A stretch of 44,286 bases of DNA from Atractiella rhizophila (Eukaryota): NCBI GenBank assembly GCA_021432655.1, contig MU271480.1, positions 11,600 through 55,885 of the forward strand. The letters run 5' to 3'. The notes beneath the pieces were generated by a model, which saw only the letters and a list, made by a program, of their open reading frames with translations, searched no databases and had not been told where the DNA came from. Both the position numbers and the translations under genes were made by a program. The number at the start of each line of letters is the position of its first letter. Positions within the stretch are counted from its first letter, which is position 1. Positions 16,654 through 37,459 of the stretch are shown here, piece by piece.

Positions 16654-19600
16654 CTAAGACGTCAGTCGCATGCAGTAATCTAGAGCAACCCATCAGGCTC
16701 TGACGGTACAAGGAAAGGAATTGAGACCCACCAGGATTGCCTGCAGGATTCAAAGCCCATTGTGGAAAGCTCGTGACCTTCCCTCCGGCTCCTCCAACAG
16801 CGAAAGAGTAAATGAAAATCATAACCTCAGTCCCGCCATCCAAAGCCGCCGAAACTAAACAACAATCAGTCCTGTCAGGAATGAGCAAGTATGGTAGTGT
16901 ACCCAGGAAATTGTACTAGACCATATCGGTCAATGATGGTTCGAAGGGAAGTACGGAAAAATGTACTTTACGGAACCATCTTGGGTGATACTTCCTCAGC
17001 CAGAACTGGGATACTAAGCAGAGGAGGAAGGTAGTGAAGATTGAAGAGTTGATTCCTCCACTCAAATAACCGATACTTGCTGCCACCATGGGTGTAATGA
17101 CGGTATTCGCACGGAGATGTGGGAACTTCTGATGGATGAGCCAGAATGGGACTGGAAGTGCGAGACCAATGAAGATTGAGAGGGGTATGATTCCATATCG
17201 GGAACTTGGCCTGCAGAACCTATTCATCCACAAAGATAAGGTGCCACAAGATCAAACATACGCGTAAAGGTGTTTTGCAAGTGCACCCCAGGAAACAGCG
17301 TTTGAATTGAAGCTTTGGACTCCAGCTCCGGACCATGTATTTGTTCCTTGGACCGAAAGAAGGATCTCACGATGCGAATCGACTACAGTCCTCATTATGA
17401 CATAGTTCAAAAGTGCGCTGTAAGAGCAATAAGTAATACGTCTCTTCAGTAAGAAAAACTGACCCAATAACGGCTCCCAAGTTTTGCATGGTGAATGTTA
17501 CTCGTGGGGGCAGTTTGGTATACTAAAACTAGATGAGAACCAATATTGTATGTTCGATGGAATTGCGTACTTGTCCCATCTTTAAATCTCTAGTCATAGA
17601 CCGTCCTTGCTCTGTTGAGTTGTACGCATAAAGCGAGAAATACCTGTTTGGATAGTTCAGCGCAATCACACCTAACAGCGTCCTACGGACATGTTTGCAA
17701 TCGGCTTTCCAGGCAAGATAGCAGCAGCAATCATTTGCGCCACCTTCGAGACAAGTTAGTTTGAGAAATGAAAAGCCGCAACTTGCTCACATCTTGTGTT
17801 CCAGGTACGAAGCAAAGGACTCCATAGAGAGTAGAAATGATAGGCAGGAAAATAGCGGCAAAGAGAACTGAAACAATCAATCCCCACCAAGGAAGTTGAG
17901 AATGTCCGGCTTTCCCAGTGCGAATTAGCCTCGACAAGAGGAAAGAAAGCTAGATGCGTACTATAACAGGTAGCAAATGCAATGGCGAGTGATGCAACAA
18001 ATAAACCAACATACCACAAATAAGGAACCTGCATATGTTCACCCATGCGTTCTCGTTCACTAAGAAGTCAGTACTAACCTCCTTATACACCTTCATCTTC
18101 TCGTAATGCGCATCCTCAATTGTCCCACGCCTACTCTTTATAACGGCATCTTTGATATCCTTCCAGTACCATAAAATGAGATGGGTGACCGTTGCACCGA
18201 AGCTGAGGGAATTCCCAATGGCTGTGACCGTTTGAGTGGCTGAGAACCAGGGCAGACCGACTTCAGCTAGTTTAGCTTCATCAAGCTCGAACTTGTCCGT
18301 GAGAATTGTAGTTTGATCGAACACACTTCCTAATAATACATACCGTCATCAACCACATTCATGCATGCAGGCATTAGGACCCTTACCATTTTCAAGGAAG
18401 AGAAGCTGCGACAGGAACGGAAAGTTTTGCGCTTTCCTACACGCAGTTCGCTCTTTCAGTGCCGTCACTAATAGCCAGACAAAACGCACCAGACGTTGTT
18501 GGCATACACCGCGCAGAAGCTGATGATGCAGATTAACACTCCGACATAAAGTGAAAGCTGGGTTTGGATAGGCTGGAACACTGGACCAACGACAAACCAT
18601 TATGTTTGCAGCTTCCGAAAGGAGATAGTGCCTACATGCTCCATACGCAGAGCCGCCCGACCCAACGTATTGCCAATCGAGACAAATGGCAAACAGCCCC
18701 AAACCTTCATTTCCGGCGGCGCCACCAAAGATCCTCGTGACCCATGGCGAATTCTGTCTTGCGAGACAAAAGATGGAGATCCCCGTCAAAGTTGGCGCGA
18801 TGTATTCAGGAAACCATTCTGGACACGCTTCAGAGGTCTTGACGGGTGAAAACAGAAGGAAAGTTACCCCAGACAAGAGCGATGCAGAACAAAGACCAGA
18901 AGAACTTTAGCCTCTTCTTCTGTAGTATGCTGTCTGCTCCACGATGTAACACATCGAACATCTGGATCGTGGGCATGAGGTTGGGGAAGACCTGGTGGGT
19001 CGGATACACGAGGAAGGAACGATATATTCCTGCCAATCCATACCCAATGAGTTGAGAACCAAGTAAGGTAAAGATGGCGATGGCGACGTTTGGTTTGAAG
19101 TGATAAAATCTTCACGAGTAAGAACTGAGCTGGATATCGATAGGAAAGAGCAGGATCGACGCACAAGTCATCGGCTGCAAAGATGTTGATGGCCAACGCG
19201 CCATGAGTGGCAGCTGCAGCCATGCTATAAAACCATCAGACTCGCCCTTCCCTCAAGGTGGATGACACGAACATAAGAGTTGCGACGTGTTCTTTGATGT
19301 TGAACTTTCCCGGATTGAGCCACCTGAAAAAGGCAGTGTCGTTCGTTTGGAAAAGCTTCCCCTCAGGACCAGGGAGGAGATATTCAAGCCCTCTCCCCAT
19401 GATATACGAAAACGTTTGAAGGAACAGTTGTGACTATTTCGATCCGATGCGGACACATTGGTTAAAGTTCTTTGAAAGGGAGTACGAAGGGGAACTAACC
19501 ACATAGACGGTCTGGGGACGGAAAGCAAAGATTTGGGAGAGTACAGCGCCAAAGCAAGAGAGCCCAATGGCGATGAACCACATCCTGAACGTCCAAACTG

Positions 19601-24884: not shown

Positions 24885-26428
24885 ACCCCTCAAAACACTC
24901 CTGCTACGCACGCGACACCAAATGCTCTGTCGTACGTCTCCTATCCCAAATTACACCACACTGATTTTCAATGGAATAGCCGACCCCAAGTTCCCACTAC
25001 TGTAGATGAGGAAGAGGAAGAGGATGATGAAGATATCCCTGTCATCAGCAGCGGAAACAATGGAGGAGATCAAGCCGCACGAGTCGCTCAACTCGTCAAT
25101 ATGGCTGGTGGCGGAGCTCTCCTCAGTTCGTTTCTCCTATCGCACACCACAAGGAATTAGCGCTCATTGCCTCATCTGGTATATAGCGAACATGGTTCAA
25201 AGCCGTTTTAACAGTCTGCTTGGACAGTCCAGTGGTTACATCGAATCCCTGGATCAGAGCGTCAAGTCAAGACTCACGGGTCTGAAAGGGCTTCAAGCGG
25301 AGCAGTTCGAGATCGAGTCGGAGCTGAAGAAGGAGATTCTGGAGTTGAAGAAGAAGTACACGGCCAAATTTGATCCTCTCTTCGCTCGGAGGAAAGAGAT
25401 TGTCTTGGGTTTGAGTGAGCCAAATGACAAAGAATTCGAGAAGGGTTTGGAGGAAGAGGAGAAGGATGACGACGAGGACGATGAGGAAGAGTCTGATGAC
25501 GAAGAAGAGGAGCAAGAGAAACCGAAGAGCCGAAGAGCGACCAAGGAGGAGATCGAGAAAGGGCCGAAGGGTGTGCCTGAGTTCTGGCTTACAGCGATGA
25601 AGAATCATGTGGGACTTTCGGATTTGATCTCTGAACGGGACGAGATGCTGCTGAAGCATCTGATCGACTTGAGAGTGTCTTACGATTTGGAGGAGAAGGG
25701 AAAGCTGGGCTTCAAGCTCATCTTCGAATTCGATAAGGACATCGTCGGGAAGGACTGGTTCGACAATGAAGGAGGCTTTCTAGAGAAAACTTATTATTAT
25801 CAAGATAAAGTTGCCTACGATGGGGATTTTGTTTATGATAAGGCGGTGGGAACGCAGATCAAGTGGAAGGAGGGGAAGGATCTCACTGTGAAGGTGGAGA
25901 AAAAGCGCCAAAGGAATAAAAGTTCGCTTCCTGTTTTCCCCCAATCGCCATCGTTGATCAGTTGTGATCTAACAGATACTGGTCAAACGAGAACGATCAA
26001 GAAAACCGTCCCCACCCCTTCATTCTTCACCTTCTTCTCTCCTCCTGACCCAGAAGAGATTGATGACGAGGATGAAGATGAAGAAGATGACCTGCGAAAT
26101 AAGCTCGAGCTCGACTACCAAATCGGAGTCGACATCCAGGAGCGCGTAAGTTGTTCTGACCTGTCTTTCATCTTGTTTTTTGGTGAGCAGTAATGCTGAA
26201 TTGTCATTTGCAAAGTTGATACCGAGGGCGATTGACTACTTTACTGGACGAGCCCTCGAGTTCGATGAGACAGATTTCGACGACGACGACGATTATGCCC
26301 TCGATGACGATGAGGACGAAGAAGAGGAAGATGAAGAAGATTTCGCCCCGAGGAAAATCAAGAAGGCGCCCAAGCCACCTATTAGTGGAGTTACACCCAC
26401 CGAGCCTCAGGAATGCAGGAATCAGTAA
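24885..26428 (+). CDS. NAP1: Nucleosome assembly protein 1 (start not resolved)
   Basis: TPQNTP exon at 24885, then LLGQSSGYIESL, KGVPEFWLTAMKNH, GDFVYDKAVGTQIKWK, KKRQRNK, SFFTFFSPP, LELDYQIG, LIPRAIDYFTG and a C-terminal ECRNQ. Introns resolved by hand; first exon/ATG not found (in-frame ATGs at 25101 and 25192). Confidence 0.92.
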
Positions 26429-26787: not shown

Positions 26788-26821
26788 GTCTGCCAAAATT
26801 CCTTGTCTGCCAAAATTCCTT
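26788..26821 (+). repeat. Perfect 17-bp tandem repeat (gtctgccaaaattcctt x2)
   Basis: Directly visible in the intergenic region between NAP1 and the WOPR-bZIP gene. Confidence 0.9.
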
Positions 26822-27337
26822 ATTTAGGCACAGATTTTAGTTACTGCTGTGGTGGGAAATAGTCGTCACTGCAAGCACTGACATGATAAGACGGGATGCC
26901 TCGGTGATAAGGACAAAGGAGTTGTGAGTCCACAAGGGCTCGGAGGGGTTTGAAAAGCTGTTTGAAAGGGCGAAGAAAAGAAGTTTCCATCGGCGATGTC
27001 GTGTTCAATATCTCGAGTTCTTGACGTGCGGGTAAGAAATTTTTACGGTCGAAATTTCTTATCTCGACTGATCAGTTGACGTGTATGTAATATTGTTGTA
27101 AAATAGGAGTAAGAGGGCGGTATCGTATGGCGTGTGATGACGGGATGTTGCAGCAATCTGGAACACGAATAGATAGATAATGTAGGAGCTCGGTGAGGTC
27201 CAAGTTCGAGATGTCAGATCGCATCAGCGTCTCTGAGCTCGAGCTTCCGCGTGTGGGCACAAATATAAAGCATCTTTGGAAACATTCTTGATCCCCCTCT
27301 GACTGCCATCACCTGCATTCCTTCTTGACGAGGCAGA

Positions 27338-28725
27338 ATGAGCTCTTCCCCCATGCTCCCAACATGGAATGGGACTGTCAGCACCTTCGAGGACGCGTGC
27401 ACACTCATCCTCGCCGTTCGAAAAGGGTTGCTACCAGAAGTCAAGAGAAAGCTGAACAAGAGGGAGAAGGCGGAGTTGATACGCCCTGGCAATGTTTTCG
27501 TTTTCGAGGAGGGAAGGAGCGGAGTAGTGCGCTGGAACGATCATCTCAAGGTACGCCATTTTTACGTGATTGTCGCAGCTCGCTTCGGTCGCACGAATAT
27601 TCAATAATGAGTAATTGTTGTCGGGAGTAGTGGTACGGAGCTAGATATTCTGGTTGTTTCATTCTCTATGACGAACGACCGGACGACACTTCCAATACCC
27701 AGGGAATGCTGACGAGAAAGACTGTGTCTGTCAACTGTGCGGGAACGGACGAGAGATATCACGTCATTGCTTATTTGGATGGAGAGGAGAAGCGCCGCGT
27801 GACCATGGATGACCGTCTTCGAGGATTAGTTGTGAACGTTGCCGACTTCAGCCACTCAAGGAGCGCGAAGAGGGCGAAGGAAGAACCAGAGGACGACCTG
27901 GATGGACTGCCAACGATCAAATCGCCGCCTAAGCGCAGGCAGAGCACAGGTTCGGTTGCAGTCATCCATGCCCCTCCAGCTCCTCAGCAATCGAAGACTC
28001 CTCCAACCCCAATCCCAACTCCTCAACACCAACCAGAAAAGCTGAAGCAGATTCCCTCTCTCCCCCAATCGACAGACGGACCGCAGGATCCCCCTCTTCC
28101 CACCCCTCCACTTTTTTCACACCTCCCGCCTCCTTCATCAGAACCCTGGACGTCTCTCCCCCTGCCAGACCCTACCCCAGTCCGAACACTGCTCATTCCC
28201 TCCCGACCCCTACCTCGCTCAGAGAGCGAAGATTCCCTCGCATCTGGGGATGGGGAGCGTGAGGCTCCTGCATCGTCGAGGCCGAAGAAGCGACGAAGGA
28301 CGTCGAATCTAAGCGCGGTAGGCGGTGGAGAGGAGACGACGGAGACATTGGTAGAGAAGGAGGAGAAAGCGGAGGAGAGGAGGAGGAAGAATGCGCTCGC
28401 AGCGAGGAAGTGCAGGGCACAAAAAGCGTCCTATATTGAGAGTCTTGAGAAGAGACTAGCAGAAGCGACTTCGTTGCTAGGAGCGAGTGAAAAGGAGCGC
28501 GAGATGTTGAAGACGGAGAACGAACGGCTGAGGTTAGCGGAGAGCGTGGAGGAGGTTGAAAGATGGAGGGAGAGGTGTCGGCGCCTGGAGGTAGAAATGA
28601 AGGCGCTGAAGGAAAGAGAAATTCAGGAGAGAATGGCGAAGAAGCAGGCGTTGGAGCGAGTGGAATTGATCGGGAGGGATTTGAGCATCTGGCTGATGGA
28701 TCAGAGGAGGATGGATGCCGCCTAA
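27338..28725 (+). CDS. Gti1/Pac2 (WOPR) domain plus bZIP transcription factor, ~435 aa (exons 27338-27550, 27631-28725)
   Basis: WOPRa-like PTWNGTVSTFEDACTLILAVRKGLLPEVKRKLNKREKAELIRPGNVFVFEEGRSGVVRWNDHLK|WYGARYSGCFILYDE; WOPRb-like GMLTRKTVSV...YHVIAY; Pro-rich linker; bZIP basic region RRRKNALAARKCRAQK followed by a heptad coiled coil. A phase-0 GT-AG intron (27551-27630) keeps the frame. Confidence 0.85.
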
Positions 28726-29259
28726 AACCCCAACTTCTTTCTCCTTTTTTAAGTCCTGTGTGTTTCGTTACAATCTTGGATTAACACCAACCAAATCTTT
28801 TCGATTTCTGTTTGGGCTTCTCAGTGTCGGTGTTGTTGGATTAGATTATTCTGAACCTAGCTTGGAAGTTTGACCGCAGGTCAAACTACATTTCTCTGGG
28901 AATGTTTCCGTCATCAGTGCCAGATTCCCTATTGCAATGGAATATTCTGTGGCTCGCGACATATTCATGCTGTCACTACGCAGATAATAATTTGTGCATG
29001 ATCCTCTCATGGATACTACGCGCACCCTCCGTGTTCTAACAATGCCAACGCAGAATTAACGCAACTAGGGCAATATCACAGCGCAATTAATAATGGGAGG
29101 TAATTATATCCTCAAATTTGATGATCGGCGCGCGTTTTAGGGTCAGGGTCATTGTCGGGACGCAACCTCATTTTCCCAGCACTCTTCCGCCCAGTCTTCC
29201 GCCGACATCCACAACGTCTCGACCTAATACTCACCAGATTTTTATTTTATCACGATACA

Positions 29260-35443: not shown

Positions 35444-37459
35444 TCAGAAGTGGAACTCCCCAACCGCCTGTCATGAAGTAAATCAGTAATTTCCTTTAGG
35501 GGGTGAGAGGAAAAGGAAGCGTACAGGTCCGAAGCCATCTGGTGGCAGTTCGAGTCGTGGGCATTTGCGTCCATCGCAGTTATCTGCCATAGAGTTCAGA
35601 TTAAAAGGTACCCAAATGGTAAAAATCTCACCCTCCCATACGGTATTGCCCCACCAGACCGGTTGGTGATCCACAAACTGGAGAGAGAAGAACCATATCA
35701 CGCCAAAGATAGCGACCGACGCGGTCAGGGCAGTTGCGAGGACGTAGTTATCTGGAAGTGTGCCGTTGTTAGACTTTGGCATACACCTGAGACAAAAGAA
35801 ACGAACATTTGGACCACCACGCGAGATAGCGCTTCCTGACGAAATACTGGAAGAATATGGCGAACCACAGGCCAGGGAAGGCCAGATGGCTCAAGTTGTA
35901 AGGCGCCCATCCGAGTCCACCATCTGTCGGTGAAGGCTAATCAGCAAGTGGCTGTCAACGAAGAGAGGGGAAGACGCACTGAAGAAGGCGGGGACATGAA
36001 CGTATTTGAACCAACTTCGTGGATATCGTCGTGCGAGGAACCAGAAGGGGATCGGAGCGACGGCGCCAATGAGGAATCCATATGTGCATACATGGTATAT
36101 CTGCTCTCACGTTCAGCGTCGATCCCATTTCGCAAAAACCAGGCTAAACGTACCCCTCCCTGAGAGTACATTTTTGCGGGTCCAATCACGCCCCTGCGCT
36201 CACCATCAGCTAGTACTCGACGTCGTAATGAATTGTGCGGACCAAACAACAGCAGCGGAGAAGAAGGTATTGTATCCTGGACAAGTGAAGTGAGCACTTT
36301 GGTTTGGTGTACATAGGTTATCGATGTGTAGAATTTGCCAGCTATTACAAAGTCAATGATCGGCTGTCTTCGATGAAGGAAATGGACAGACTTGATGACA
36401 CCTAAAGAAACAAAAGCGGCCCAAACGGTAGCAATTGTTTGAGCCCAAAACTGCAGTCTGCACACGAAGATCCTCCATCAGGTCTATCCAAGGAACTATG
36501 GGAAAGACATACCTTGGAGACAACTTGAGATAGTGCCCCAGCTTGAGGTCGGATGCGTAAGTGATAGCTTGGGACGTGACGAGAAGACCATAGGATTTGA
36601 AGAGCATGTTGGCGAGTGGTTTTCCGGGAAGAGCGTAGCCACCGATCAGTTCAGCTATGGTTCCCAAGTCAATCAATCTGCTCAAATGTTGTACAAGGCA
36701 AGGCGATAAGACGCACCAATGACGTTGAGTGTGATTTGGACATTTCCAACAGCGGTGATCATTCCAGCAGGGACGACAAAGATGAAAGCGAGAGCAATGC
36801 AAATGACAAATCCCCAAATTGGGAACTGGGTATCGTAGACTGTTGTCATTGTTCAGTACCACGACCTCTTCGATGGTTGCAGGAGTTACTTACTCTCGAC
36901 CATGACGATTCCGCAAGTCAAGGAAACAACCATGATACAACCGAACCCTTCAACCGACCAGATGAGCCTTGACAAACGTGGATAAGACAGAAAGACATAC
37001 ACCACTCCGGGACCCTGCCATTGACATCAACTCAGAAACCAGAAAAGAGAGAACGAGCAGGTAGACGCACTCGGCATAATTTCTCATCAATCGGTTGTGA
37101 AGGTCATTATAACCCGTCTGTGCGTTCTTCCACTCCTTCATCGCGCGGAACCCATCGATAATGGGCTTATAATGGTACAAGGCGGCATGTACGAGACCCG
37201 CGGTGTAGAAGGCGAAGAAGAATCCGTACAGGAGCGCGTTAGCCGCTCCCCAATATGCTTCATGCCATCCATTAGAAAGAGGACAAGAAATAGATGAGGT
37301 GCCAAGAAAGACGAACCGGGACTATAATTGTTGTAAGCCTCCTTGTCGAGTGTATGCTCGCTTGTCAGGATCCTCGATACGTTGTATCGATGTCCGTTCC
37401 GGTCCCAAAGGTGATTATCGTTCAATGGCAGATATCCTGTCTGCCAGATGTTCGAGTAC
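35444..37459 (-). pseudogene. OPT family oligopeptide transporter, C-terminal half only
   Basis: YSNIWQTGYLPLNDNHLWDRNGHRYNVSRIL, HNRLMRNYAE, AELIGGYALPGKPLANMLFKSYG, DLKLGHYLKLSPR, YVLATAL, WWGNTV, terminal GPAVGEFHF-TGA at 35444. No N-terminal OPT exons found upstream within the window. Confidence 0.8.

Follow-up and report, generated by a model that had tools for sequence, protein, structure and literature searches.

WOPR (Gti1/Pac2) proteins act as master switches in fungal morphology and host interactions. To our knowledge, the characterised members carry a single DNA-binding domain followed by an unstructured tail. Two different DNA-binding domains on one chain occur in the Pax proteins (paired domain plus homeodomain) and in the POU proteins. 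The gene described here belongs to the root endophyte Atractiella rhizophila (Basidiomycota, Pucciniomycotina, Atractiellomycetes) and is located at positions 27338-28725, on the forward strand, of a 44,286-nucleotide stretch of contig MU271480.1 (NCBI GenBank assembly GCA_021432655.1, positions 11,600 to 55,885), which as a whole is called the window below. Its product combines an N-terminal WOPR domain with a C-terminal basic leucine zipper (bZIP)-like module. Both kinds of module are well known from transcription factors; the architecture that joins them is new. We consider it probable that this is an expressed and selectively maintained A. rhizophila gene which encodes a 435-residue nuclear transcription factor with a WOPR and a bZIP module and which arose by fusion within its own lineage.

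The closest described systems were used for comparison. With the WOPR regulators Wor1 (Candida albicans), YHR177W (S. cerevisiae), Pac2, Ryp1, Sge1 and Ros1 the window protein shares the two-part N-terminal domain, its predicted fold, and a long low-complexity region behind it. Unlike them, it has a very short linker between WOPRa and WOPRb, reads VRWNDH for KRWTDG and WYGAR for WSPSR, and adds the C-terminal bZIP-like module, which was absent from the 150 other WOPR proteins scanned. With the bZIPs CREB1 (5zko), ATF-2 (1t2k) and JunD (5vpa) it shares the signature in register, a heptad coiled coil at the same spacing and, likewise by prediction, a parallel in-register homodimer. The similarity to the CREB/ATF/AP-1 bZIPs is marginal (PDB E 0.07-0.33) and just under the Pfam cut-offs, and the window protein differs from them by Ala, Ser and Arg in the zipper core, a coiled coil of ~85 residues and the fused WOPR domain. 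The concept of two modules, a flexible linker and recognition of composite sites is shared with Pax and POU proteins; the folds are unrelated, and in the window protein one of the modules would also enforce dimerisation, giving four DNA-contacting elements.

Gene structure and transcripts

The gene comprises two exons and one intron:
27338..27550, forward strand: exon 1 with the start codon and most of WOPRa, residues 1-71 (71 codons); from the open reading frame and its ATG, a Gti1_Pac2 match of 66.7 bits for the exon alone, and spliced contigs of runs X16, X4 and X1
27551..27630, forward strand: intron of 80 nt, GT..AG, phase 0; spliced out in three contigs, one per run (X16, X4, X1)
27631..28725, forward strand: exon 2, residues 72-435 and TAA (28723-28725), with the rest of WOPRa, WOPRb, the linker, the nuclear localisation signal (NLS)-like motif and the bZIP module; a single open frame of 364 codons, covered by contigs without a joint

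The spliced product has 435 residues and one terminal stop, and is identical, letter for letter, to P0001, an NCBI hypothetical protein of A. rhizophila. For transcript evidence, the region 27000-29000 was compared with contigs or reads of four runs (X16, X4, X1 and X24); 16 further runs with parts of the stretch stood outside this comparison. X4 is a root metatranscriptome according to its record; for X16 and X1 no library type is recorded. X24, the only raw poly-A RNA-seq run, gave 0 reads in ~6% of the run, which is no test of expression; the transcript evidence rests on X16, X4 and X1.

The exact 80-nt GT..AG skip was found in contigs of all three covered runs. Since the spliced form is present, the contigs of X16 and X1 are of RNA origin; spliced mRNA thus occurs in the root metatranscriptome and in two runs from other studies. 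Overlapping contigs tiled 27268-28914, and the intron was the only joint reported between 27000 and 29000. The coding part was free of indels and loose ends in the contigs, with indels confined to 28745-28760 in the 3' untranslated region. Record 8 of X16 covers 27288-28073 (WOPR into the linker), record 13 of X4 covers 27859-28457 (from the end of WOPR across the entire linker and through the basic region), and record 11 of X16 covers 28125-28886. This suggests one molecule spanning all domains, although contigs cannot prove a single molecule. Because WOPRb, linker and bZIP module lie in one exon, separation of the domains would require an internal promoter, of which no sign was seen between the domains in the contigs over 27000-29000.

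A preliminary description of the locus, made from the sequence alone, had given the gene as 27338-28725 with its intron, the length of 435 residues and the motifs; all of these were correct, as judged from the sequence, its open reading frames and the identity to P0001. It had also placed WOPRb, the Pro-rich linker, RPKKRRR, the basic region and the coiled-coil tail in one exon, which agrees with the 364-codon open frame, and had proposed the intron at 27551-27630, which RNA-derived contigs skip exactly. Transcripts separating WOPR from bZIP, named there as a counter-indication, were not encountered in contigs that tile WOPR, linker and bZIP without a joint between them. Its term 'in-frame intron' holds for the position, which lies between codons, but not for the length, as 80 nt is no multiple of 3.

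On the opposite strand, a frame of 195 residues (28193-28780) was taken as a by-product of purine-rich sense codons.

The two modules and their pairing

The following parts were assigned within the gene:
27353..27867 (intron included), forward strand: WOPR (Gti1/Pac2) domain, residues ~6-150, with WOPRa at residues 6-92 and the WOPRb core at residues 96-121; from Pfam, phmmer, AlphaFold2 and Foldseek
27868..28329, forward strand: Pro-rich linker, predicted to be disordered, residues ~151-304; predicted local distance difference test (pLDDT) values <50 over most of residues 155-304
28279..28299, forward strand: RPKKRRR, an NLS-like basic cluster, residues 288-294; read in the sequence, NLS function putative
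28360..28434, forward strand: bZIP basic region, residues 315-339; from Pfam bZIP families, the register with CREB1, ATF-2 and JunD, and its place outside the predicted dimer interface
28390..28416, forward strand: N-x2-AA-x2-C-R signature (NALAARKCR), residues 325-333; exact match
28435..28683, forward strand: leucine zipper and extended coiled coil, residues 340-422; predicted parallel in-register homodimer

According to the accessible parts of two reports, a WOPR domain consists of WOPRa (~80 residues) and WOPRb (~50 residues), which form one interdigitated beta-sheet domain (PMC13729134, PMC4567300). In the window protein, Pfam Gti1_Pac2 (PF09729) matched residues 9-92 with 82.5 bits (cut-off 23.6, E 5e-23), and phmmer against the PDB gave YHR177W (4m8b, E 2.5e-12) and Wor1 (4qtj, E 8.9e-12). 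The WOPRb consensus was matched at residues 96-121; the WOPRb part of exon 2 alone gave only a chance match in the PDB (Robo1, E 0.77). An AlphaFold2 model built from a WOPR alignment of 89 proteins (A2) had pLDDT values mostly >90 over residues 11-140, with strands contributed by both WOPRa and WOPRb. Foldseek placed it on DNA-bound Wor1 (4qtj_A, E 1.4e-12, target-normalised template modelling score (TMt) 0.75) over 148 columns of the 154-residue chain. On the strength of the Pfam, phmmer, AlphaFold2 and Foldseek results, the domain is a complete two-part WOPR domain as modelled, in which the linker from WOPRa to WOPRb is unusually short. Compared with 87 relatives, the near-invariant residues G12, R37, G51, F54, R65, W66, D68, W72, R76, F81, Y84, H115 and Y119 are kept.

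At the C-terminus, residues 321-333 read RRRKNALAARKCR, in which the signature N-x7-R/K is preceded by the basic cluster RRRK. Residues 300-381 scanned alone matched bZIP_2 (21.9 bits, cut-off 22.3, E 1.8e-4), bZIP_Maf (21.9 bits, cut-off 22, E 2.6e-4) and bZIP_1 (20.4 bits, cut-off 27.6, E 5.8e-4). Five of the six phmmer matches in the PDB (E <=10) were bZIPs, namely CREB1 (0.069), ATF-2 (0.074), JunD (0.23), CREB (0.33) and BACH1 (1.6). In the alignments with CREB1, ATF-2, JunD and CREB, N325-x2-AA-x2-C332-R333 is matched in register, and L343 is paired with the Leu that opens the CREB zipper. The zipper core is formed by I340, L343, L347, A350, L354, S357, R361, L364, N368 and L371. By features, the nearest ESM-Atlas clusters were all bZIP (0.79-0.86, values below 0.9 being a lead only).

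Homodimer prediction for residues 305-435 gave interaction prediction scores from aligned errors (ipSAE) of 0.47, 0.46 and 0.47, compared with 0.01 for the best control; among proteins solved as same-chain pairs, 21 of 30 attained this mark, and among those solved as single chains 0 of 23 did. Contact agreement between runs was at least 91%, and pLDDT of the partner at least 81. In the model the two chains run parallel and in register, with contacts at 340:340, 343:343, 347:347, 350:350, 354:354 and onward, and the predicted interface (residues 336-422) leaves the basic region free, which is bZIP geometry.

Taken together, the C-terminus is very probably a bona fide bZIP-type domain; that it binds DNA is held with less confidence. 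Of the earlier expectations, the AP-1/ATF-type signature NxxAAxxCR proved exact and in register with CREB, ATF-2 and JunD, and a dimerising factor is what structure prediction gives, as a prediction only (parallel homodimer, ipSAE 0.47 against 0.01). Hidden Markov model matches were obtained for both domains: the Gti1_Pac2 match is clear (82.5 bits), and the bZIP matches are significant for the segment alone (E <1e-3) but fall under the cut-offs.

The pairing of the two modules was sought in other proteins. An exhaustive HMMER search with P0001 against 1.84 billion representatives returned 1767 matches at E <=1e-3, 199 at E <=1e-10 and 2 at E <=1e-30. Among the best 150 of these 1767, which were examined (~1,600 weaker WOPR matches lie outside this count), all aligned via the WOPR part except P0002, which aligned over its whole length, and P0004, a fragment of the linker. 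A Pfam scan (E <=0.05) covered 151 WOPR proteins, in the alignments A2 (n=89; P0001-P0003 and P0005-P0090) and A3 (n=62; P0091-P0152, of which P0152 is a cluster member). Gti1_Pac2 was matched in 151 of 151, and a bZIP clan in one, P0001 itself; P0002 had no bZIP match even at E <=1. P0004, in neither set, was scanned separately against Pfam and matched no family.

When residues 286-435 were compared by phmmer with 151 proteins (P0001-P0151, P0004 included), only P0001 and P0002 were found, and a relaxed regular expression for the signature over P0001-P0151 found P0001 only. Word-indexed searches with exon 2, the full length and residues 305-435 (the latter at E <=10) likewise returned only P0001 and P0002, within the limits of word sharing and of E-values scaled to a 5.8-billion-sequence database, by which absence is not proven; by the same search with residues 305-435, no close bZIP relative was found as a possible donor. 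No relatives were found in two metagenome scans. ESM-Atlas searches with the whole protein and the C-terminus listed no cluster with both families among clusters of at least 50 members. No paper on a WOPR-bZIP fusion was found in the literature searched, outside the supplementary tables of transcription-factor catalogues, and in the accessible parts of PMC8778692, PMC5140021 and PMC11645254 the terms WOPR and bZIP denote separate proteins. The suggestion that this architecture had not been characterised before was thus upheld by the 150 other WOPR proteins scanned and by the literature found.

Outside the species, P0003 comes nearest (128 bits); it is a JGI/IMG metagenome protein of 289 residues on a contig of 1828 bases. 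Its single chain has two WOPR domains in tandem (Pfam 210.5 bits, 3 stretches), and the second shows the W-N-D-H variant of the window protein. The nearest named relatives are annotated as Pac2-like proteins of rust fungi. In P0127 (Cordyceps javanica 'pac2', 567 residues), a partial Zn(2)-Cys(6) match (residues 38-65, 20.9 bits, cut-off 21) precedes a full WOPR domain at residues 136-304; it was noticed by a count of Cys residues, simple regular expressions for Zn2Cys6 having found nothing. Either P0127 joins its WOPR domain to another DNA-binding module, or its gene model merges two genes. P0003 (WOPR-WOPR) and P0127 (borderline Zn2Cys6 plus WOPR) resemble the window protein in having WOPR and a further DNA-binding module on one predicted chain. 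Their partner modules differ from that of the window protein, neither has a bZIP, and the gene model of P0127 is unverified.

Within A. rhizophila, the canonical WOPR protein is P0005 (430 residues, 38% identical to P0001), and two further copies of the present gene, P0002 and P0004, are located on other contigs. P0002 has 398 residues and is 84% identical to P0001 (alignment A1), with identities of 60/66 in WOPRa, 50/55 in WOPRb, 121/146 in the linker, 18/25 in the basic region and 76/87 in the zipper; RPKKRRR is identical. The P0002 model is without the 24 residues of the WOPR core that carry W72-E86, and its C-terminus continues in another frame. P0004 is a frameshifted fragment of 103 residues, 83% identical to the linker and annotated as a protein. 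Judged by sequence, both are likely pseudogenes or decaying duplicates. One intact, constrained copy next to two decaying ones points to a recent duplication, and since the sister copies decay, constraint on the window copy is not automatic.

This constraint was seen in strain differences. The contigs differ from the window sequence by 1-3%, and 40 differences in the coding sequence were listed (14 further ones were unlisted). Of the listed ones, 35 affect the third codon position, 3 the first and 2 the second; 32 are synonymous, and 8 replace a residue (R60M, D132E, D162E, I167V, H184N, Q190H, P284L and A396T). In the bZIP core (residues 309-395) no differences were listed, synonymous ones included. 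In the Pro-rich linker nearly all differences are synonymous, and because the linker has the same synonymous pattern as the domains, purifying selection extends beyond them: the whole frame is under purifying selection, linker and domains alike. A rough ratio of nonsynonymous to synonymous rates (dN/dS) of ~0.1 follows from the 32 and 8 differences, assuming that about 1/4 of the sites are synonymous.

Diversity was uneven along the gene in X1, silent sites included. A piece with the bZIP module and the end of the linker (28219-28749) differs at 3 of 531 bases, and a piece with WOPRb and most of the linker (27720-28241) at 16 of 522. For 28044-28148, X16 has two alternative contigs with the same depth of 2.5, which suggests that the sample contained two alleles or two strains.

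Alternative explanations

Some of the observations weigh against a factor with two working DNA-binding modules and favour other explanations, which are given here in order of weight. Under the first, the tail of a WOPR factor is a dimerising coiled coil and no more, the basic region is vestigial or coincidental, and WOPR is the sole DNA-binding module. This would account for bZIP scores under all three Pfam curated cut-offs, with only 15-17 bits for the bZIP families in a full-length scan, for a coiled coil (residues 336-422) much longer than the segment of the bZIP profile, and for the atypical residues A350, S357 and R361 at three of the ten zipper core positions. By structure, the ESM-Atlas neighbours of the C-terminus were generic long helices and coiled coils, which is unspecific. 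The AlphaFold2 monomer has helices at residues 311-354 and 367-434 and is broken between them, at residues 355-366 (pLDDT 66-77), and the pass in dimer prediction may reflect likeness to the many solved bZIP dimers, not binding. The sister copy P0002 tolerates the loss of the signature Arg (R333T) and of the core residues I340T, L354P and L364S, has a Pro insertion in its bZIP as well, and differs most from P0001 in the basic region (18/25), the least conserved part; the bZIP is therefore not constrained in every copy. Against this explanation, an exact N-x2-AA-x2-C-R stands directly after RRRK with the first zipper Leu aligned with CREB, three bZIP families match at E <1e-3, and residues 309-395 show no listed strain differences, not even synonymous ones. 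P0002, moreover, decays elsewhere too, in the missing WOPR core segment and the shifted C-terminus. We regard a coiled-coil tail of this kind as unlikely.

The second explanation turns this around: a bZIP factor with a re-purposed WOPR fold, which would serve a regulatory or protein-interaction role while the bZIP alone targets DNA. Four near-invariant positions of WOPRa depart from the 87 relatives, all in or beside KRWTDG and WSPSR: V64 (K/R in 76), N67 (T in 77), Y73 (S in 72) and A75 (S in 82). Together with G74 (P in 57), Y73 and A75 turn the WSPSR loop into WYGAR, with W72 and R76 kept and the three middle residues changed. DNA binding by the WOPR domain may be altered or weakened by these departures. 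KRWTDG is described, in the accessible part of the source, as a putative PKA phosphorylation motif characteristic of WOPR proteins (PMC13729134). It is a regulatory feature, not needed for the fold. By V64 and N67 in the resulting VRWNDH, the putative PKA site is gone, and the WOPR module is probably not regulated through it. A Wor1-type motif, moreover, has no match near the gene. Set against a re-purposed fold are the very high confidence of the predicted fold, its superposition on DNA-bound Wor1 and the retention of R37, R65, W66, D68, W72 and R76. The variant is also partly typical of the lineage, parts of it (DH after W-T/N) being shared by the Pucciniomycotina relatives P0003, P0005 and P0006; in the canonical P0005 and in P0006, a Pac2-like protein of Puccinia, the 'DH' form is present and the Thr is retained. 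A WOPR fold diverted from DNA appears improbable, more so than the coiled-coil tail.

Third, the gene could be a young, functionless chimera heading for decay like its two sister copies. It was found in one species only across all searches made, with no orthologue outside A. rhizophila, and both P0002 and P0004 are damaged. The 32 synonymous and 8 nonsynonymous differences, the absence of indels from the coding sequence in three divergent haplotype sets, the spliced mRNA in X4 and two runs of other studies, and the intact frame of 435 residues make this very improbable.

Lastly, an annotation artefact merging neighbouring WOPR and bZIP genes, for which there is no specific support apart from the general risk of automated models (possibly P0127), is essentially refuted by the uninterrupted 364-codon exon with WOPRb, linker and bZIP, and by overlapping contigs without a joint or polyadenylation-like loose ends.

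Surroundings of the gene and possible mode of action

Upstream of the gene, one candidate element was read in the sequence:
27021..27090, forward strand: candidate promoter element in which TTGACGTG(n)GTAA occurs twice, at 27021-27035 and at 27076-27090 (spacing 55 bp, copies 80% alike)

The RNA contigs begin ~180-250 bp downstream of the element, and a perfect 10-nt inverted repeat, TAAGAAATTT/AAATTTCTTA (27033-27042 and 27052-27061), is located between the TTGACGTG copies. Across the window, 4 copies of TTGACGTG were counted where 1.4 were expected; 7 of 100 shuffles reached 4, which is not significant. A link of the TTGACGTG element to the bZIP module would be speculation. TGACGT is a half-site like that of the cAMP response element (CRE). 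TTAAAGTTT, a Wor1-type WOPR motif, and TGACGTCA, the CRE, were not enriched in the window, and neither was found near the gene.

At 25006-26193 (forward strand), the upstream neighbour encodes a nucleosome assembly protein (NAP; Pfam 236.7 bits). Between it and the WOPR-bZIP gene, the 17-mer GTCTGCCAAAATTCCTT is perfectly duplicated in tandem at 26788-26821. Matches to the OPT oligopeptide transporter family were found at 18349-18906 and 35941-36889, both on the reverse strand (31.2 and 58.9 bits), and may represent two OPT genes within 20 kb. Owing to a run of N of 870 bases (794-1663), the first 2 kb are low in GC and contain six-frame 'ORFs'. The window is ordinary gene space around the fusion gene.

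For the two-module factor preferred here, the following course of events is proposed. The gene would most likely have originated within the Atractiella lineage, by fusion of a segment coding for a bZIP to a duplicate of a Pac2-like WOPR gene. The protein would enter the nucleus by means of its basic cluster RPKKRRR and form a parallel homodimer through residues 336-422. The paired basic regions would clamp a CRE/AP-1-like palindrome, as suggested by the class of the signature and the aligned CREB and JunD chains. The dimer would thereby hold two WOPR domains on flexible tethers, which could contact nearby sites, and composite promoters (a bZIP site with WOPR sites nearby) would be read with higher avidity than by a lone WOPR domain. 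With the loss of KRWTDG, regulation through the PKA site would have been given up.

DNA binding by both domains is inferred, as is a possible link from 'stress' signalling to 'development' through the protein. A more specific version can be put forward only tentatively and is rather doubtful as a whole: an obligately dimeric factor whose two folds bind DNA jointly, the bZIP at CRE-like sites and the WOPR pair scanning nearby, by which a normally PKA-linked regulator of a developmental switch would be placed under different control during root colonisation, with possible autoregulation via the twin TTGACGTG copies.

The importance of the finding is limited, as the gene is known from one species and the function of the fusion protein is a prediction from its sequence. 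The papers naming A. rhizophila are, as far as their accessible parts go, mostly surveys of root and rhizosphere microbiomes. For a plant-root-associated fungus with almost no molecular genetics, the gene provides a candidate regulator. It would be a recent case of a transcription factor born from fused domains and could be compared with its decaying sister copies, which the same genome contains. For the WOPR family, it would offer a natural test case in which the effect on WOPR target choice of enforced dimerisation, and of a second DNA specificity, can be studied.

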